Positions 1-28,253 of a stretch of 64,000 nucleotides of DNA are shown here, piece by piece. The stretch's first letter is position 1, and each line of letters starts with the position of its first letter. This stretch comes from Vicinamibacterales bacterium (lineage in GTDB: Bacteria > Acidobacteriota > Vicinamibacteria > Vicinamibacterales > JAENWD01): contig DASVDJ010000196.1 in assembly GCA_036381155.1 (NCBI GenBank), positions 52,823 through 116,822 of the forward strand, read 5' to 3'. The position numbers were made by a program, and so were the translations under genes. The notes under the pieces are model-generated. The model had not been told where the DNA came from and did no database searches. It saw only the letters and a program-made list of their open reading frames with translations.

Positions 1-1408
1 CCCGCATGACCGACGGGTCCGGCGTGCGGCCGGTCCAGATCCGGAACTGCTCGACGGCCTGCGCGACCAGCATGTCGAGTCCGCCGAGGGTGGCGCAGCC
101 GGCCGCGCGCGCCTCGCGCAGCAGCCGCGTCTCCGGCGGGTTGTAGACGAGGTCGTAGACCAGCTGCCCGTCCAGTTGCGCACCGGGCAGCGGTGTCTCG
201 TCGACGGCCGGGTACATGCCGGCCGACGTCGCGTTGACGAGCAGATCCCAGCTGCCCGGCGCCGGCGGCAGCGGCGCCGACGCCACGCCGACCTCCGCAG
301 CCACGGCGCGCGCGCGATCCGGGCGACGCGCGGCAATCGTCACCGACGCGCCGGCCCGGCGCAGCGCGATCGCCGCCGCGCGGGCGGCGCCACCTGCCCC
401 GAGCACCGTCGCTCGCTTCCCGGCGATCTCGACGCGTTGCGCAAGCGGGGCCAGCAGCCCGGCGACGTCGGTGTTGAAGCCCTCCCACGCGCGGCCGGCG
501 CGGCGCAGCGTGTTCACCGCCCCGACCTCGCGCGCGACGTCGTCGGGCGTGCAGTACGGCAGCACGTCGACCTTGAACGGCACCGTGACGCTGGCGCCGG
601 CGAGATCGAAGGCCTCGGCGAAGGCGAACAGGTCCGCGGCATCTGCCGCCTGCAGCGGCACGTACACCGCGTCGAGCCCGGCAGCACGGAACGCCGCGTT
701 GTGCATGGCCGGCGAGACCGAGTGCCCCGCCGGGTTCGCCGCCAGGCCGTAGAGCGCGGCGCCGGCGCTGACTTCGCCGAACCGGAACTCCTCGCGCATG
801 CGCCCGGCCGGGACCTGCCCCGGCGCCGCGCCGTCGCCGGCATAGGTCCACGCCGACGCGAAGCGATCCGGCAGCAGCCGCGTCACCAGTCCCGCGGCGC
901 CCATCGCGATCACCACGTGGCGGCGCCCGGCCGGCGGCCGCAACCCGCGCAGCGGCACGCAGTCACGGAGCGCCCGCGCCGTGACGGCCAGCTTCACCAC
1001 GGCCGCACCGGTCGCCGCCATCGCGGCATGCCGGTCCTCGAGGTCGCCGGGCACGCCGGAGAAGTCGTGGTGCGAGACGACGATCCGCTCGCCGCGGGTC
1101 TCGCCGATCCATGGGGCCCGCGTCCAGGCCTGCCACTCGACGTCCACGAAGTCAGCGGACGCGCGCCAGGCGCGTTCGAGCAGCCGGAGGCGCTCCTCCT
1201 CGGACCCGCGGAACTGCCCGCCCTCCCAGGCCGCGCGGCACGTCACGATCACCGGGCCGGTCCGGCCGGCGAGCGCGCCGTCGGGGTCGGGATCCGCCAC
1301 GGTGTCCAGACGCAGCTCGACCAGATCCGCCTCGCGGGCGGCGGCATCGCGCCGCGCGCGCAGGTCGGCAAGGGTCGGCGCCGTCACCGTGACACACAAT
1401 CGGGCCAT
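1..1408 (-). CDS. aroDE: Bifunctional 3-dehydroquinate dehydratase (type I) / shikimate 5-dehydrogenase; 3' end runs off the window
   Basis: Absent from the ORF track because no stop lies inside the window. My translation from the ATG at 1408 gives MARLCVTVTAPTLADLRARRDAAAREADLVELRLD (AroD-like). In frame further on are TVLGAGGAARAAAIALRRAGASVTIAARR (AroE Rossmann loop) and LVYDLVYNPPETRLLREARAAGCATLGGLDMLVAQAVEQFRIWTG (AroE C-terminus). Confidence 0.85.
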   Translation of the reverse strand, partial: MARLCVTVTAPTLADLRARRDAAAREADLVELRLDTVADPDPDGALAGRTGPVIVTCRAAWEGGQFRGSEEERLRLLERAWRASADFVDVEWQAWTRAPWIGETRGERIVVSHHDFSGVPGDLEDRHAAMAATGAAVVKLAVTARALRDCVPLRGLRPPAGRRHVVIAMGAAGLVTRLLPDRFASAWTYAGDGAAPGQVPAGRMREEFRFGEVSAGAALYGLAANPAGHSVSPAMHNAAFRAAGLDAVYVPLQAADAADLFAFAEAFDLAGASVTVPFKVDVLPYCTPDDVAREVGAVNTLRRAGRAWEGFNTDVAGLLAPLAQRVEIAGKRATVLGAGGAARAAAIALRRAGASVTIAARRPDRARAVAAEVGVASAPLPPAPGSWDLLVNATSAGMYPAVDETPLPGAQLDGQLVYDLVYNPPETRLLREARAAGCATLGGLDMLVAQAVEQFRIWTGRTPDPSVMR

Positions 1409-1452
1409 AAAATGAAAAAGCCTCTTGCACCTGTTCGGTGAAGAGGCTCTCC
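1409..1452 (-). terminator. Intrinsic terminator / attenuator hairpin immediately upstream of the aroDE start codon
   Basis: The minus-strand RNA reads GAGAGCCUCUUCACCGAACAGGUGCAAGAGGCUUUUUCAUUUUAUG. Arms AGCCUCUU/AAGAGGCU pair, plus inner CACC/GGUG, followed by a U-tract that runs into the ATG. Confidence 0.7.
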
Positions 1453-1482
1453 GGTTCGTCGACGCGCTGGCCGGTGCGTGCG

Positions 1483-1623
1483 CTACGCCTCTTCCCTCCT
1501 GGGCGTGCCAAACCACCACCAGCTCCGGTACGCACCGGTCCCCGCCACCGCGGCCGCGCCGATTTGCACACGGCTGCCGTACGGGGTATAGAACAGCACG
1601 GCGTCGTACCGAAAAGCAGACAT
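1483..1623 (-). CDS. 46-aa aromatic-rich leader peptide (putative attenuation leader for aroDE)
   Basis: This is the tail of track ORF 1483..2034(-), read from an internal ATG: MSAFRYDAVLFYTPYGSRVQIGAAAVAGTGAYRSWWWFGTPRREEA. 10 of 46 residues are F/Y/W. The WWWF codons lie at 1510-1521. The stop overlaps the antiterminator segment. Confidence 0.55.
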   Translation of the reverse strand: MSAFRYDAVLFYTPYGSRVQIGAAAVAGTGAYRSWWWFGTPRREEA

Positions 1624-1642
1624 ACCGCGTCGAGTGGAAAAA

Positions 1643-1671
1643 ACGCTACCAGAGCCGCCAGCGCGTGTCAA
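1643..1671 (-). promoter_or_regulatory. Sigma-70-type promoter for the leader/aroDE transcript
   Basis: Minus strand reads TTGACA (1671-1666), a 17-nt spacer, then TAGCGT (1648-1643). It lies about 20 nt upstream of the leader ATG. Confidence 0.45.
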
Positions 1672-1768: not shown

Positions 1769-3601
1769 ATGGGGTTTGGCCGCGCATTTCTTACACTCTC
1801 CCTGGCCCTGCTCGCCCTGCTGCCCCTGCGCGCGGCGGCGCCGCTGATGCCGGTCTCGGAGATCAAGCCGGGCATGGTCGGCGTCGGGCGGACGGTCTTC
1901 ACCGGGTCCCGGCTCGAAGAATTCAAGGTCCACATCCTCGGCGTGCTCGAGAACGTCATGGGCCCGAGCCGCAACCTGATTCTGGCGCGGCTCGAGGGCG
2001 GGCCGCTCGAGAAGACCGGCGTCATCGCCGGCATGAGCGGCAGCCCGGTCTACGTGGACGGCCGCCTGATCGGCGCCGTGTCCTACTCGCTCGGCGCGTT
2101 CTCCCGTGAGCCGATCGCGGGGATCACGCCCATCGAGGAGATGATCGACGCCACGCGCACGACGTCCCGGCGCGCGCCCGGCACGCAGGCCAGCCTGACG
2201 CTGCCGGTCAGCACCGCCTCGCTGGCCTCCACCCTCCAGGACGTCTTCGCGCGCACGCCCCCCTTCGCGCAGTCGCCGGCCGACGTGCGGCCCGCCGCCC
2301 TGGGCCCCGGCGTCGCCCCCGATCTGGCGACGATGCTGCGGCCGATTTCGACGCCGCTCGTGATGGGCGGCTTCCGCGGCGACGTCGCGACGATGATTGC
2401 CACCGCGTTCTCGTCGAGCGGCTTCACGCCGATGGCCGCGGGCGGCGGAACCGCGCCCGACGCGCCCGAACTGGATCGGCCGCTGCAGCCCGGCGACGCG
2501 ATCGGCGTGGGTCTCATCGACGGCGACCTCTCGCTCGGCGGCACCGGGACGGTCACGGCGGTCGAGGGCGACCGCGTCTACGCGTTCGGACATCCGTTCT
2601 ACAACCTCGGTCCGACGAAGTTCCCGATGACGCGGGCGTGGATCCACACGCTGCTGCCCAGCCTGATGAACTCGTCGAAGCTCGGCAGCCTCGGCCGGGT
2701 CATCGGCACGTTCGAACAGGATCGGGCGACGGCGATTGCCGGCACGCTCGGCCCCGGCCCCTCGATGCTGCCGATCCGGCTCGTGCTCGACACGGATCGC
2801 GGTCCGCGCCGCGAGTTCCGCTTCTCGGTCGTGCGCGACCAGCTGTTCACGCCGCTGCTGACGTACCTCACCGTCGTCAACACGCTGAAGTCTTATGAGC
2901 GTGAGTTCGGGACGGCGAGCTTCGTCGTGACCGGGCGGGCGCTCGTCGCCAAGCACGGCGAGATCGCGTTCGAGGACATCTTCACCGGCGAGTCCCCGTC
3001 GGTCGGTGCCGCCAGCTACATCGCCGGGCCGATCACGTTCCTGCTGAAGAACGAGTTCGAGCCGGTCGAGATCGACGAGCTCGATCTGCGGATCGTCTCC
3101 TCGGAGGAGCCGCGCACGGCGGTGCTCGAGCGCGTGTGGCTCGACGCGCCGACGGTGCGGCCGGGACGCAGCGTGCCGGTGAAGCTCCTGATGCGGACCT
3201 CGCGCGGCGAGGACGTCCTGCACACGGTCCCGGTCGACATCCCCGTCAACGCGAGCGGCACGCTGACGCTCATCGTGGCCGACGGCGCGCGGCTGGCGCA
3301 GATCGAGCAGCGCGAGACCCGGCAGACGCAGCGCGCGCAGGACGCCGCGCAGATCGTCAAGGCCTTCAACAAAGCCCGCAAGAACAACCACCTCTACGTG
3401 CGGCTCGTCAGCTCCGAACCGGGGGCGGTCGTCAGCGGCGAGACGCTGTCGGCGCTGCCGCCTTCGGTGCTGGCGGTGCTCGACGCCGACCGCCACGGCG
3501 GCTCGATCGGCAGTCTGCGCAGTGCGACCCTGGGCGAGTGGGCGATCCCCACCGACTACGCGGTCTCGGGCGCCCGTTTCCTCTCGCTGCCGCTCCGCTG
3601 A
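1769..3601 (+). CDS. Secreted peptidase S55 (SpoIVB-like) domain protein
   Basis: Internal ATG of track ORF 1634..3601. Signal-like MGFGRAFLTLSLALLALLPLRAAAP, then PGMVGVGRTVFTGSRLEEFKVHILGV...GVIAGMSGSPVYVDGRLIGAVSY (S55-type Ser protease core). Confidence 0.8.
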   Translation: MGFGRAFLTLSLALLALLPLRAAAPLMPVSEIKPGMVGVGRTVFTGSRLEEFKVHILGVLENVMGPSRNLILARLEGGPLEKTGVIAGMSGSPVYVDGRLIGAVSYSLGAFSREPIAGITPIEEMIDATRTTSRRAPGTQASLTLPVSTASLASTLQDVFARTPPFAQSPADVRPAALGPGVAPDLATMLRPISTPLVMGGFRGDVATMIATAFSSSGFTPMAAGGGTAPDAPELDRPLQPGDAIGVGLIDGDLSLGGTGTVTAVEGDRVYAFGHPFYNLGPTKFPMTRAWIHTLLPSLMNSSKLGSLGRVIGTFEQDRATAIAGTLGPGPSMLPIRLVLDTDRGPRREFRFSVVRDQLFTPLLTYLTVVNTLKSYEREFGTASFVVTGRALVAKHGEIAFEDIFTGESPSVGAASYIAGPITFLLKNEFEPVEIDELDLRIVSSEEPRTAVLERVWLDAPTVRPGRSVPVKLLMRTSRGEDVLHTVPVDIPVNASGTLTLIVADGARLAQIEQRETRQTQRAQDAAQIVKAFNKARKNNHLYVRLVSSEPGAVVSGETLSALPPSVLAVLDADRHGGSIGSLRSATLGEWAIPTDYAVSGARFLSLPLR

Positions 3602-3643
3602 GCCGGTGGCCCGCTGGTCCGTTGTAACGACACAGAAGTTGCC

Positions 3644-5875
3644 ATGACTCGGAAAATCGCCGGGCTCGCGACGAGCCTGCTCGTGGTGTGCGTGTTCTCG
3701 TCGCCGCTGCTCGGAGCCGGCGCGCGGTTCTGGGAGGTGGCCACGCTGGCCGACTTCCTCGAAGGCGAGGTCACGAACCTCTCGATCGACCTGCACGGCC
3801 GGCTCGTGCTCGGACCGGAGCTCACCGAGCTGGCGGCGCCGACGGCGCCCGTGCTCTGGAACGCGCTCGAGGGCCGGGACGGCGCGCTCTACATGGGGAC
3901 CGGCAACGACGGCCAGGTGCTCCGCATCGCGCCGGACGGCCAGCTGTCGGTGTACTTCGACTCGGCAGAGCTCGAAGTGCACGCGCTCGCCATGGCGCCG
4001 AACGGCACGATTTACGCGGGGACGTCCCCGGACGGTCGCATCTACCGCCTGACGGGCGAGGGGCAGGCCACGCCCTTCTTCGATCCCGACGACAAGTACA
4101 TCTGGGCCCTCGCGGTCGGACCGGACGGCGCCGTCTACGCTGCCACCGGCGACAAGGGGCTCGTCTACCGGATCACGCCGGACGGCCAGGGCGAGGTGTT
4201 CTACAGCACGCGGGCGACCCACGTCCGTGCGCTGCACGTCGCGCGCGACGGCTCGCTGCTGGTCGGCACGGAGTCGCCCGGGCGCGTCTTCCGCGTGACA
4301 CCCGACGGCCAGGGATTCCTGCTGCTCGATTCCGGGCTGCAGGAGATCAGCGCGATTCGGCCCGGCCGCAACGGGGTCGTGTACGCCGCGGCGCTCACCG
4401 CCTCGAGCGCGCCCGAGCCCTCACGTCCGACCACGGCACCCGAGCAGCAGGAGCAGCGTGCGCCCGTTCCGACGGTGTCTGCCGAGATCACCTCGATGGC
4501 GGTGGTCGAGCAGCCGCCGCCGGCGCCGGAACCGTCGCGCCCCGCGCGCGAGGCGGGTCGCTCGTCCGGTCGCGGCGCGGTCTACCGGATCCAGCCGGAT
4601 GGCGACTGGGATCCGATCTGGTCCTCCGCGGAGGACACGCCGTACGACGTCGCGCTCGACACCGACGGCGCGGTGCTCGTGGCGACGGGCGGCCAGGGCA
4701 AGATCTACCGCGTCTACGGCGACCCCGCCCGGACGATGCTGCTGGCCCGCGCCGCCGCGCAGCAGGTGATGACGCTCGTGCCGGACGGTCCGCGCGGCCT
4801 GGTGGTCGCGACGGCGAACCCGGCCAAGGTGTTCCGGCTCTCGGCGCGGCCGGCGGAGACCGGGACGTACGAATCCACCGTGCGCGATGCGCAGTCGATC
4901 GCGACGTGGGGCGCGATCAGCTGGCGCGGGCTGGCGCCGGCCGGCACCGACGTGCGGCTCTACACCCGCGCCGGCAACACGCCCGCGCCCGACGAGACCT
5001 GGAGCCCCTGGTCCGAGGCCTACCGCAATCCGGACGGCGAGCAGATCACGAGCCCTCGCGCGCGGTACCTCCAGTGGAAGCTCGAGCTCGTCGGCACGCA
5101 GGGGCGCACGCCGGTCGTAACGTCCGTCACGGCGGCGTACCTCCAGCGCAACGTGCGCCCCGAGATCACCGGCATCACGATTCACCCGCCGGGTGTCGTC
5201 TTTCAGAAGCCCTACTCGAGTGGCGAGACCGAAATCGCCGGCTTCGACGCCGGGCCGCTCGACCGGCGACCGGGAGCCGGCAATCAGCAGGGCGCTGCGC
5301 TCGCGCTCGGCCGCCGCGGCTACCAGAAGGGGCTGCAGACGATCATCTGGAAGGCCCAGGACGAGAACGAGGACGACCTCTCCTACGACGTGCTCTACCG
5401 CCGTGAGGGGGAGACGAGCTGGAAGATCCTGAAGGAGAACCTGCTCGAGCCGATCTTCGTGTGGGACACGACCTCGGTGCCGAACGGCACGTACGTCGTG
5501 AAGATCGTCGCGACCGACGCGCTGGCGAACCCTCCGGGCTCGGCGCTGGTCGCGGAGCGCGAGAGCGGGCTCTTCGACATCGACAACACGCCGCCCACGA
5601 TCACGGTGCTCTCCGCCGTCCGCTCGAACAACCGCACGTCGGTCCGCTTCGTGGTCCGCGACTTCGACTCGACGATCCAGCGGGTGGAGTACGCGATCGA
5701 CGCCGACCGCTGGCGCCCGATCTACCCGAAGGACGGCATCGCGGACACGCGCGTGGAAGAGTTCGAGCTGACGCTCGAGGTCGACACCGTCGACAAGGCC
5801 ATCATCCTCCGGGCGGTCGACGCGATGAACAACGTCGCCACCGGACGGGCCGAGCCGCTGGAGCCGCAGAACTGA
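3644..5875 (+). CDS. Secreted beta-propeller repeat protein with Ig-like C-terminal region
   Basis: Signal peptide MTRKIAGLATSLLVVCVFSSPLLGAGA. Blades of about 40 aa recur (DGALYMGTGNDGQVLRI, NGTIYAGTSPDGRIYRL, DGAVYAATGDKGLVYRI, DGSLLVGTESPGRVFRV). Confidence 0.75.
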   Translation: MTRKIAGLATSLLVVCVFSSPLLGAGARFWEVATLADFLEGEVTNLSIDLHGRLVLGPELTELAAPTAPVLWNALEGRDGALYMGTGNDGQVLRIAPDGQLSVYFDSAELEVHALAMAPNGTIYAGTSPDGRIYRLTGEGQATPFFDPDDKYIWALAVGPDGAVYAATGDKGLVYRITPDGQGEVFYSTRATHVRALHVARDGSLLVGTESPGRVFRVTPDGQGFLLLDSGLQEISAIRPGRNGVVYAAALTASSAPEPSRPTTAPEQQEQRAPVPTVSAEITSMAVVEQPPPAPEPSRPAREAGRSSGRGAVYRIQPDGDWDPIWSSAEDTPYDVALDTDGAVLVATGGQGKIYRVYGDPARTMLLARAAAQQVMTLVPDGPRGLVVATANPAKVFRLSARPAETGTYESTVRDAQSIATWGAISWRGLAPAGTDVRLYTRAGNTPAPDETWSPWSEAYRNPDGEQITSPRARYLQWKLELVGTQGRTPVVTSVTAAYLQRNVRPEITGITIHPPGVVFQKPYSSGETEIAGFDAGPLDRRPGAGNQQGAALALGRRGYQKGLQTIIWKAQDENEDDLSYDVLYRREGETSWKILKENLLEPIFVWDTTSVPNGTYVVKIVATDALANPPGSALVAERESGLFDIDNTPPTITVLSAVRSNNRTSVRFVVRDFDSTIQRVEYAIDADRWRPIYPKDGIADTRVEEFELTLEVDTVDKAIILRAVDAMNNVATGRAEPLEPQN

Positions 5876-5902
5876 TCAGGACGGATCGGGTCGCGTCGGA
5901 TC

Positions 5903-5953
5903 GAATCAGGCCGCCCCGCCTTCGCCCTTCGGGCGACGGGGCAAGCCTGATTC
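5903..5953. terminator. Long GC hairpin between convergent genes (bidirectional terminator candidate)
   Basis: GAATCAGGC-CGCCCCG..TCGCCCTTCGGGCGA..CGGGGC-GCCTGATTC: nested inverted repeats between stop 5875(+) and stop 5954(-). Confidence 0.55.
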
Positions 5954-6817
5954 TCAGGCCGTGGCGGACCCGACCGGGTTGGCGGCGGGGAGCTCGCTGA
6001 TCGGAAGCTCCGGGTCCTGGATCAGCGGCGGGCTCGCCGGCGTGTGTGGCGTCTGCAGCCCGGGCAGCGTGTCGGCGATCTTGCCGCGCACGGTCGTGTG
6101 GGCGACGAGCCAGATCATGCTCACCGCCACGGGCGAGCCGCCCGACGACCGGGCAGGCAGGAAGCGCGCCTGGGAGGCCGCGTCGAGCAGCTGCAGCACC
6201 TCGGCCCGATCGAGCTCGATGGCCTGCCCGCCGTTGGTCAGCAGCTGGACGCTCTGCACGGTGCCGTCGCGCGAGACGACCGCCGCGAGCGCGAAGACCC
6301 CCTCCTCGCTGTCGAGCAGCGCGCCGACGATCGTGTCGGGATCGAAGCGCGGGAGCAGCCGCTGATCGCTGACGCGCATCGGATTCAGGTCCGATCCGGT
6401 CGGTGACGACAGCGACGCGATCAGCGCCGACATCGAGGCCGGCTGCTGCTGCAGCGTGAGCCGCATCAATCCGAAGACCGCCAGCACGACGGTGACGGTT
6501 GCCACCGTCGCCCCTGCGGCCGCCCACACCAGGTGCATGTCCTCGAACAGGCGGTTGAGCCGCCCGTGCCAGGACGTCTGCCGCTCCGCCTGAAGCCGCG
6601 CGAGCACGTGCCGCTCGAGCCGGCCCGGCTCCTCGGGCGCCCGCGAGCCCACGACCCGCAGCAAGGCGCCGAGCTCGCGCAGGCGCCGCCGCTCCTCGCG
6701 GCACGCCGCGCACGCGCGCAGATGGGACTGGACCGCCGCCTGCTGGTCCAGCGGCAGCTCGCCGTCGTGATAGGGCGCCAGCAACCGGCGCGCCTGGCGG
6801 CAGGTCAGGGTACTCAT
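5954..6817 (-). CDS. Anti-sigma factor (zf-HC2 type) with one TM segment and a periplasmic domain
   Basis: MSTLTCRQARRLLAPYHDGELPLDQQAAVQSHLRACAACREERRRL (H-x3-C-x2-C). TM segment VWAAAGATVATVTVVLAVFGLM. Its start overlaps the sigma-factor stop (ATGA). Confidence 0.85.
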   Translation of the reverse strand: MSTLTCRQARRLLAPYHDGELPLDQQAAVQSHLRACAACREERRRLRELGALLRVVGSRAPEEPGRLERHVLARLQAERQTSWHGRLNRLFEDMHLVWAAAGATVATVTVVLAVFGLMRLTLQQQPASMSALIASLSSPTGSDLNPMRVSDQRLLPRFDPDTIVGALLDSEEGVFALAAVVSRDGTVQSVQLLTNGGQAIELDRAEVLQLLDAASQARFLPARSSGGSPVAVSMIWLVAHTTVRGKIADTLPGLQTPHTPASPPLIQDPELPISELPAANPVGSATA

Positions 6818-7446
6818 GCCGGCACCTCCTGCAGCGCCTGGCGCAGCGCCTGCCGCGCGCGTGTCAGCCTCGACTTGACCGTACCGAGCGTCACACCGAG
6901 CGAATACGCGATCTCGTCGTAGCTCAGGCCGTCGATTTCCCGCAGGACGATCGCGGTGCGCTGGTCGAAGGGCAGCCGGTCGAGCGCCCGGGCCAGCCGG
7001 TCGGCCAGCTCCTTGCGGGCGAAGATCCGGTCGGGCGCGGCCCCCTCGAGTCCGGCCAGCTCGTCGCCGTGTGCCTCGAGATGCTGGTCGAGCGACACCT
7101 GGTGGCTGCGATGCCGCCGCCGCCACCAGCGCTGCCGGTTCCGGGCCTGATTGACGACGATGCGGTAGATCCAGGTGCGGAGCTGGGACTGCCCGCGGAA
7201 CTGGTGGAGGGTGCGGAAGACCCGCAGGAACACTTCCTGCGACAGGTCGAGCGCCTCGTCGCGGTCGCCGAGGAGGTTGCAGGCGAGCTGGAACACCATC
7301 CGCTGGTGCTCCGCGACGAGCTCCGCGCTGGCCTCTTCGTCGCCGGCCGCACACCGGCGGATGAGGTCAGCCTCGCGGCTGCCGAGATCGTCCCACGTCT
7401 GCGAGACGGCCGGTTTGACGAGGAGATCGTCTGCCAAGGCTCCCAT
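6814..7446 (-). CDS. ECF (group IV) sigma-70 family RNA polymerase sigma factor
   Basis: From the internal ATG: MGALADD...EHQRMVFQLACNLLGDRDEALDLSQEVFLRVFR (region 2) and LPFDQRTAIVLREIDGLSYDEIAYSLGVTLGTVKSRLTRAR (region 4). Confidence 0.9.
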   Translation of the reverse strand: MGALADDLLVKPAVSQTWDDLGSREADLIRRCAAGDEEASAELVAEHQRMVFQLACNLLGDRDEALDLSQEVFLRVFRTLHQFRGQSQLRTWIYRIVVNQARNRQRWWRRRHRSHQVSLDQHLEAHGDELAGLEGAAPDRIFARKELADRLARALDRLPFDQRTAIVLREIDGLSYDEIAYSLGVTLGTVKSRLTRARQALRQALQEVPA

Positions 7447-23624: not shown

Positions 23625-23698
23625 GCGGGCTTAGCATAGTGGTAATGCCCTGGCTTCCCAAGCCAGCCAGACGGGTTCGATTCCCGTAGCCCGCTCCA
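23625..23698 (+). tRNA. tRNA-Gly (anticodon CCC)
   Basis: Hand-folded cloverleaf. Acceptor GCGGGCT/AGCCCGC, D-arm GCAT-AGTGGTA-ATGC, anticodon arm CTGGC-TTCCCAA-GCCAG, T-arm ACGGG-TTCGATT-CCCGT, discriminator U, encoded CCA. Confidence 0.9.
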
Positions 23699-28178: not shown

Positions 28179-28253
28179 GCGCGCTTGGCTCAGTGGTAGA
28201 GCATCGCCTTCACACGGCGGGGGTCGGTGGTTCGAATCCACCAGCGCGCACCA
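28179..28253 (+). tRNA. tRNA-Val (anticodon CAC)
   Basis: Hand-folded. Acceptor GCGCGCT/AGCGCGC, D-arm GCTC-AGTGGTA-GAGC, anticodon arm TCGCC-TTCACAC-GGCGG, T-arm GGTGG-TTCGAAT-CCACC, encoded CCA. Confidence 0.9.

Follow-up and report, generated by a model that had tools for sequence, protein, structure and literature searches.

In the trpL leaders of Escherichia coli and Salmonella, the textbook case of attenuation, the position of the translating ribosome picks which of two RNA helices forms. The thr and ilvGMEDA leaders of enterobacteria are multivalent, with mixed codons for several of the amino acids served by the operon, while the Bacillus subtilis supraoperon aroFBH-trpEDCFBA-hisC-tyrA-aroE is controlled by TRAP acting on (G/U)AG repeats, a TRAP site being marked by 9-11 such triplets placed 2-3 nucleotides (nt) apart. 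The trpL mechanism of enterobacteria is summarised in PMC11802643, and the trpL leader of Corynebacterium glutamicum and the trpE attenuator of Streptomyces venezuelae have Trp-containing leader peptides and depend on tRNA-Trp (PMC4833913, PMC11802643). According to the summary given in PMC11802643, a Phe-Tyr-Phe leader peptide controls the C. glutamicum aroR-aroF operon, which includes a DAHP synthase gene (Neshat et al., 2014). In Acidobacteria, a 2010 survey had attenuators essentially unannotated. Here we describe a leader that is likely to be a ribosome-mediated, leader-peptide transcription attenuator of a tryptophan/aromatic operon. It lies ahead of aroDE on the minus strand, at positions 1409-1671, of a 64-kb stretch of DNA from a Vicinamibacterales bacterium (hereafter the window; G+C content of 71.3%).

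The proposal is built on two alternative pairings of a single RNA strand. Directly upstream of aroDE, region 3 (AGCCUCUUCACC, 1437-1448) and region 4 (GGUGcAAGAGGCU, 1419-1431) form the two arms of a hairpin around the loop GAACA (1436-1432), with a folding energy of -20.6 kcal/mol including the closing G-U pair. The hairpin is followed by the U tract UUUUUCAUUUU (1409-1419), which abuts the aroDE ATG at 1408. These parts constitute a predicted intrinsic terminator between the leader open reading frame (ORF) and aroDE, and the hairpin is not the terminator of an upstream gene because the neighbour on the plus strand (1769-3601) is divergently transcribed. Further upstream, region 2 (GG followed by GAAGAGGC, 1487-1496) is the putative 5' strand of the antiterminator. 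Its core (1494-1487, codons 44-46 of the leader) is a second copy of the terminator 3' arm and is complementary to GCCUCUUC in the terminator 5' arm; the core pairs with 1447-1440 at a duplex energy of -16.9 kcal/mol, and the full region 2 (1496-1487) pairs with 1447-1437. Region 3 would accordingly be shared, as terminator 5' arm and as antiterminator 3' strand, and the antiterminator is predicted to exclude the terminator through this common arm. The spacer between regions 2 and 3 (1449-1486) is unconserved in sequence and is 38-53 nt long in relatives; its internal pairing stabilises the antiterminated fold (-24.2 kcal/mol in the window).

Region 2 falls at the end of an ORF of 46 codons plus TAG (1483-1623; ATG at 1623-1621, stop at 1485-1483), whose predicted peptide, MSAFRYDAVLFYTPYGSRVQIGAAAVAGTGAYRSWWWFGTPRREEA, contains 3 F, 4 Y and 3 W. 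Within it, the codons UAC CGG AGC UGG UGG UGG UUU (Y-R-S-W-W-W-F, 1510-1530, with UGG UGG UGG UUU at 1521-1510) make up the candidate regulatory cluster. Direct reading of the sequence places the promoter just ahead of this ORF: a -35 hexamer TTGACA (1671-1666), a 17-nt spacer, and an extended -10 element consisting of TG (1651-1650), one base and TAGCGT (1648-1643). The leader start codon is 19 nt 3' of the -10 hexamer. The ORF is embedded in a longer open frame (1483-2034), of which the ATG at 1623 is the first start codon past the promoter, and no Shine-Dalgarno sequence is found ahead of it. An earlier reading of the letters and their ORFs, made without database searches (the sequence-only reading), had listed these elements, namely the TTGACA-17-TAGCGT promoter, the ORF with ten aromatic residues and the second copy of the 3' arm with its complement, and our analysis bears out each of them on the minus strand. 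A consensus scan of the window for promoters and terminators reported neither the promoter nor the terminator of the leader and is uninformative here: it overlooks the promoter because the -10 hexamer fits the consensus at just 3/6 positions, and the terminator stem has a bulged C.

Several properties set the leader apart within the window. The fold of the whole leader beats shuffled sequences (z = -2.6), its minimum-energy and centroid structures both contain the terminator, and the hairpin pattern occurs once in the 64 kb whereas 0.06 occurrences are expected. Only two runs of at least five T's exist on either strand of the window (1415-1419 and 1638-1643), both of them in this leader. When the upstream sequence was shuffled with its dinucleotides preserved, 39/1000 shuffles matched or exceeded the real sequence in binding the terminator 5' arm (p ~0.04). 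Evidence for a leader element from the window alone is moderate; conservation in 22 relatives, combined with the unique hairpin pattern and the rarity of T runs, lifts the case above chance. As a separate observation, no gene in the window ends with a hairpin and five T's, and canonical intrinsic terminators may be rare in this organism.

We gathered 22 related loci by means of the AroDE protein (54-93% identity; 23 sequences with the window; individual loci are given as L001, L002 and so on). Among the homologues is one from a Vicinamibacterales metagenome-assembled genome that is 62% identical to the AroDE of the window. The terminator and the second copy of its 3' arm are present in 22/22 related loci, and each remaining element is seen in the loci whose sequence extends far enough. 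Sequence between the elements is too diverged to align across clades, and a whole-leader MAFFT alignment misplaces region 2 between clades; alignments A2 and A3 were re-cut at region 2. In the 18 loci checked with enough upstream sequence, apart from L020 and L045, in which the promoter pattern was not found, TTGACA stands 17-18 nt 5' of TAnnnT, with the variants TTGACC in L002 and TTGACG in L046. Most relatives also have TG two bases 5' of the -10 hexamer, usually as TCTGn. No such leader precedes the AroDE homologues of Bryobacteraceae (38% identity) and of Planctomycetota.

Leader ORFs in the relatives have 30-48 codons and begin 9-23 nt 3' of the -10 hexamer, again without a Shine-Dalgarno sequence. 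Clustered UGG codons, 2-3 within 3-4 codons, are found in 22/22 leaders that reach that far; they always have a Tyr codon as neighbour, and usually a Phe codon, with cluster types YRSWWWF, YRGWWWFY, WWRFY, AWRYW, YWWWY, WWWYRY and WWYW. The core of region 2, G[AG][AG]G[AG]GG[CG], begins 9-21 nt after the last UGG. The in-frame stop of 22 leaders lies between 14 nt before and 22 nt after the end of region 2, while stops in the other two frames are dispersed 5-166 nt past the last UGG. The sequence-only reading had placed the second copy on the last sense codons, which is the case in the window. In L043 (2349-2500), by contrast, the ORF ends in ...AWWWFYAP followed by TGA, 6 nt 5' of the region 2 sequence GAAGAGGC, and the copy falls outside the ORF; because that stop precedes region 2, region 2 is conserved as RNA rather than as the residues Glu-Glu-Ala. 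Unambiguous indels within the ORF in the three groups of closest relatives are of 3, 6, 18, 3, 15 and 27 nt, all of them multiples of three, while those 5' of the start codon in the same groups are of 1, 1, 3 and 4 nt. These multiple-of-three indels are the best evidence that the reading frame matters.

The two pairings are similarly maintained. Folding energies of the terminator range from -17.6 to -27.2 kcal/mol across 23/23 loci, in each of these loci the hairpin runs into a U-rich tail, and 97.4% of the terminator cells in the alignment are paired, with two outer pairs showing compensatory change (A-U to C-G or G-C); 0/500 shuffles reached its covariation score. In the antiterminator core, 166/168 cells (21 sequences) are paired. 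The shared strand GCCUCUU is invariant in 23/23 sequences, the region 2 positions opposite U change only from A to G, with the G-U pair kept, and the region 2 G's opposite C are unchanged throughout. An invariant shared strand with wobble-only changes in its partner is what two alternative pairings predict, and the pattern is consistent with them. One pair extending the antiterminator covaries, reading C-G in 10 sequences and G-C in another 7. Given the alignment without region 4, RNAalifold returns the 2:3 helix de novo and no other consensus structure; with region 4 included, it predicts the terminator.

Ribosome positions were then modelled by hiding all RNA as far as 12 nt beyond the first base of the UGG in the A site and folding the remainder to the end of region 3. 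With the ribosome at either the first or the last UGG, the 2:3 helix has a probability of 0.77-1.00 in 22/22 loci. The full leader with no ribosome gives the terminator at a probability of 0.85-1.00 in every locus checked. The spacing would let a stalled ribosome leave region 2 free and an onward-reading ribosome cover it; in L023 and L045 a ribosome waiting at the stop would not cover it. The claim that Trp codons choose between the antiterminator (GAAGAGGC with GCCUCUUC) and the terminator is thus well supported by the comparison and not by the window alone, and the two analyses that the sequence-only reading had put forward, alternative folding of the leader and a covariation search among relatives, both came out in its favour, with covariation that is limited but supportive.

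From these features we infer leader translation, termination at the U tract and a tRNA-charging signal, which would act together as follows. Transcription would begin a few bases 3' of the conserved promoter, and translation of the ORF would start close to the RNA 5' end. With ample charged tRNA-Trp, the ribosome would pass UGG UGG UGG and cover region 2 (GGGAAGAGGC) near the stop codon; region 3 (GCCUCUUC...) would then pair with region 4, and the hairpin and U tract would release the polymerase before aroDE. When tRNA-Trp is scarce (perhaps also tRNA-Tyr or tRNA-Phe), the ribosome would stall at the cluster, 9-21 nt 5' of region 2, which would be free to capture region 3 as soon as it is made, so that no terminator forms and transcription reads through into aroDE-trpEGDCFBA and the later aromatic genes. 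The antiterminated fold would also expose AAGAGG (1426-1421), which ends 12 nt 5' of the aroDE ATG; since this is the only Shine-Dalgarno-like sequence of aroDE and sits in region 4 in the window, antitermination should help aroDE translation as well. The sequence-only reading had a ribosome at the stop masking the second copy. This agrees with the position of the stop near region 2 in most leaders and is too simple for a stop that varies from -14 to +22 nt and is too distant in L023 and L045.

The genes downstream agree with the amino acid that would be sensed. aroDE (1-1408, minus strand) encodes a 3-dehydroquinate dehydratase/shikimate dehydrogenase fusion with the Pfam domains DHquinase_I, Shikimate_dh_N and SDH_C; the window edge truncates it at residue 469 of ~494, 25 codons short of its stop. 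In L001 (92% identical) aroDE and trpE, the gene for anthranilate synthase component I, share the sequence ATGA, in which the stop of the one overlaps the start of the other; trpG, encoding the glutamine amidotransferase, follows. Across nine relatives, a divergent S55 peptidase gene, aroDE and trpE are found in all, trpD comes next in the eight contigs extending that far, and trpG is separately called in seven. Beyond trpD, the operon was read in two relatives: L049 (82% identical) continues with trpC, trpF, trpB, trpA, a CM_2 chorismate mutase and a DAHP synthase, with genes that overlap or abut, and L048 (67% identical) has the same run to the DAHP synthase plus prephenate dehydrogenase (tyrA). 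In relatives, then, the predicted operon order is aroDE-trpE-trpG-trpD-trpC-trpF-trpB-trpA-chorismate mutase-DAHP synthase-(tyrA), with aroDE as the first cistron, so the element would be the attenuator of a trp/aromatic supraoperon rather than a stand-alone control of aroDE. This would account for a Trp-centred leader in front of a shikimate gene, because it heads a tryptophan operon that is extended at both ends into an aromatic supraoperon. The earlier description of trpL/pheL logic applied to a shikimate-pathway gene was right about the trpL-type logic and incomplete about its target; it saw aroDE alone because the window stops before the end of that gene. A consensus scan of the operons of two relatives gave no convincing internal terminator; with rules as strict as those of the scan, this is no evidence for a single transcript.

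Some trpE calls differ among the relatives. The trpE of L048 (11476-13521) is called as 617 residues, with no separate trpG and a 192-nt gap to trpD, and that of L039 (4479-5964) is called as two genes of 229 and 271 residues; these differences could be real gene structure or assembly frameshifts.

A number of observations weigh against the attenuator. Complementarity between regions 2 and 3 in single sequences is barely above that of shuffles (p from 0.00 to 0.10). Double-sided covariation is confined to a few pairs and tracks the clades; because it follows clade structure it represents few independent events, and we treat covariation as support and not as proof. Across clades we found no conserved 'region 1' able to hold region 2 when the leader RNA is untranslated. 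The U tract is broken in L038 (UUUCGUAUUUU), and in L023 and L045 the stop lies 19-22 nt past region 2, so that a ribosome paused at this stop would leave region 2 uncovered. The operon past aroDE lies outside the window, its continuation being taken from relatives. Other points concern translation of the leader. The frame, the stop position and the indel pattern are conserved, yet the predicted 5' untranslated region is only ~2-16 nt long with no Shine-Dalgarno sequence before the start, so translation has to be assumed, and variable columns fall at codon positions 1, 2 and 3 in the numbers 15, 17 and 22, a weak excess at the third position. Conservation of UGG is itself ambiguous between codon and RNA because UGG is the sole Trp codon. 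With regard to the missing region 1, the 1:2 hairpin is a feature of the E. coli paradigm and is not needed for membership in the attenuator class.

The position of AAGAGG gives rise to the alternative that survives best, translational attenuation of the ermC type, in which the hairpin would hide the AAGAGG of aroDE, 2:3 pairing on stalling would free it, and termination would be secondary or absent. The aroDE ATG directly follows the U tract in the window and in 13/22 relatives, which leaves the sole Shine-Dalgarno-like sequence inside the 3' arm of the hairpin, and T runs are so nearly absent from the rest of the window that canonical terminators may be little used. However, in L002, L022, L034 and L023 aroDE starts 42-68 nt past the U tract and all four keep the hairpin and the U tract intact; of these, at least L022 and L034 carry a GAGAGG of their own just 5' of the aroDE start. 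Because these loci retain both parts in spite of the distant start, termination appears to be the conserved function and masking an add-on. Moreover, 5-10 U's straight after a GC-rich stem in 23 loci of a lineage with ~70% G+C is a requirement of a terminator and not of a masking hairpin. We consider translational attenuation as the principal mechanism to be improbable.

The doubts about leader translation would be taken furthest by a constitutive or protein-controlled terminator, or a stability hairpin, in the 5' untranslated region, with the ORF and its Trp codons as an untranslated by-product of high G+C content. Beyond the lack of a Shine-Dalgarno sequence, the frame left open far upstream, the weak codon-position bias and the marginal single-sequence complementarity, this explanation could draw on a search of the protein database, which returned no candidates for the leader peptide. 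One relative has a called ORF of 47 residues, and the absence from the database is explained by gene callers skipping such ORFs. Against a by-product stand the 2-3 clustered UGG codons in all 22 leaders that reach that far, in one frame and at a fixed distance to region 2, the narrow zone of the in-frame stop compared with the other two frames, the multiple-of-three indels, the conservation of region 2 and its pairing with the shared strand throughout the loci, and codons that match the product of the operon. Together these make the by-product explanation very unlikely.

We give scarcely any credence to an RNA that reads Trp status without translation, whether a T-box-like binder of tRNA-Trp through UGG, a TRAP-like site or a riboswitch: UGG repeats are kept as sequence and the lineage is unstudied, but there is no Rfam match, T-box included, at E up to 10 and no (G/U)AG triplet array, beyond the UGG cluster and regions 2-4 there is no conserved sequence from which a fold binding a ligand or a tRNA could be built, and frame and stop are conserved. 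A cmscan of 1200-2000 with E up to 10 gave four chance-level matches, none of them a leader family (Trp_leader RF00513 and T-box RF00230 were both absent). A T-box leader, whose marks are a stem I bearing a specifier codon and a conserved antiterminator sequence, was rejected on the missing RF00230 match and the lack of conservation beyond those segments, and a TRAP-type leader on a longest (G/U)AG triplet run of 0 in the leader.

Two lesser features of the leader deserve mention. The predicted transcript start is T-rich: UUUUUUCC (1635-1643), a run of T6 followed by CC, stands directly 3' of the -10 hexamer. Among upstream segments it pairs best with region 2 in the window and in L017 and is near-best in L001, and pairing of a T-rich 5' end with region 2 is seen in these three sequences and not in other clades. 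This weakly suggests that 1635-1643 might partner region 2 when the leader is untranslated; the T6 run, lying where the transcript is predicted to begin, could be a 'region 1' specific to the clade, or it could be a trait of the initially transcribed sequence. In addition, a small hairpin, CCGGUGCGUACCGG (1525-1538, minus strand), ends 4 nt 5' of the first UGG, and GGTGCGTACCGG (peptide G-A-Y-R) is retained in most relatives down to ~72% AroDE identity; these could reflect either pausing of the polymerase at the hairpin or a peptide under constraint.

The divergent neighbours on the plus strand (1769-7354) encode an S55 (SpoIVB-type) peptidase with a signal peptide (1769-3601) and a beta-propeller protein of ~745 residues; in L048 and L049 an ECF sigma and anti-sigma pair comes next. 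In all relatives with long contigs the neighbours keep their order beside the operon; they have no obvious link to aromatic metabolism. Rfam applied to the whole window at gathering scores found two tRNAs only, tRNA-Gly (CCC) at 23625-23698 and tRNA-Val (CAC) at 28179-28253, both on the plus strand, which are the only RNA genes found there.

Judged from the related loci, the element is real and strongly conserved. As the sequence-only reading had surmised, it is undescribed in the literature searched for Acidobacteria and Vicinamibacteria, a coverage that does not extend to the review of trp-operon evolution by Merino, Jensen and Yanofsky (2008). Acidobacteriota, notably Vicinamibacterales, are among the most abundant soil bacteria and their gene regulation is almost unstudied. 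The leader provides a concrete candidate regulatory RNA for this lineage, attached to an unusual operon linking shikimate, tryptophan and tyrosine genes, and suggests that the clade uses canonical termination by hairpin and U tract at least here, despite the scarcity of T runs. Understanding of attenuation as such is unchanged; the value lies in annotation, in the repeated origins of attenuators and in the engineering of hard-to-culture bacteria. A bolder version of the proposal is a multivalent aromatic attenuator in which one peptide on a nearly leaderless mRNA reads the charging of the Trp, Tyr and Phe tRNAs and gates a transcript of 11-12 genes, working without a 1:2 hairpin, with a terminator arm doubling as the aroDE ribosome-binding site, and being, as far as our literature searches reach, the first amino-acid-sensing leader peptide described in Acidobacteriota. 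We hold this combination to be conceivable and rather doubtful. Given the content of the supraoperon, the role of the Tyr and Phe codons is worth testing.

Compared with known systems, the leader resembles trpL of E. coli and Salmonella (RF00513) in its short ORF with adjacent Trp codons, in the terminator and U tract before the first gene and in an antiterminator that uses the terminator 5' arm. It differs from E. coli trpL in lacking any similarity of sequence or covariance model, in having 46 codons instead of 14, three Trp codons accompanied by Tyr and Phe codons, no conserved 1:2 hairpin and a leader start without a Shine-Dalgarno sequence 9-23 nt 3' of the -10 hexamer, and in that the first gene is aroDE rather than trpE and the operon reaches genes of the common pathway and the Tyr branch. 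As in the B. subtilis supraoperon, the trp genes are predicted to be co-transcribed with common-pathway and Tyr-branch genes, but there is no (G/U)AG array and gene order and content are different. Mixed codons are shared with the thr and ilvGMEDA leaders, whereas here the Trp cluster is the only invariant and a response to Tyr or Phe is a possibility. The actinobacterial trp leaders likewise combine high G+C content with a Trp leader peptide ahead of trpE; they belong to another phylum with no homology detected, and in the present operon aroDE stands between leader and trpE, with chorismate mutase, DAHP synthase and tyrA added to the unit. For a common-pathway aromatic gene, control by a leader peptide has a known precedent in aroR-aroF, which, as summarised in PMC11802643, has Phe/Tyr codons and responds to Phe limitation, whereas the leader described here has Trp codons and heads the trp branch. 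The mechanism proposed is thus that of the textbook, and what is new is the lineage (Acidobacteriota, Vicinamibacterales-like) and the operon.

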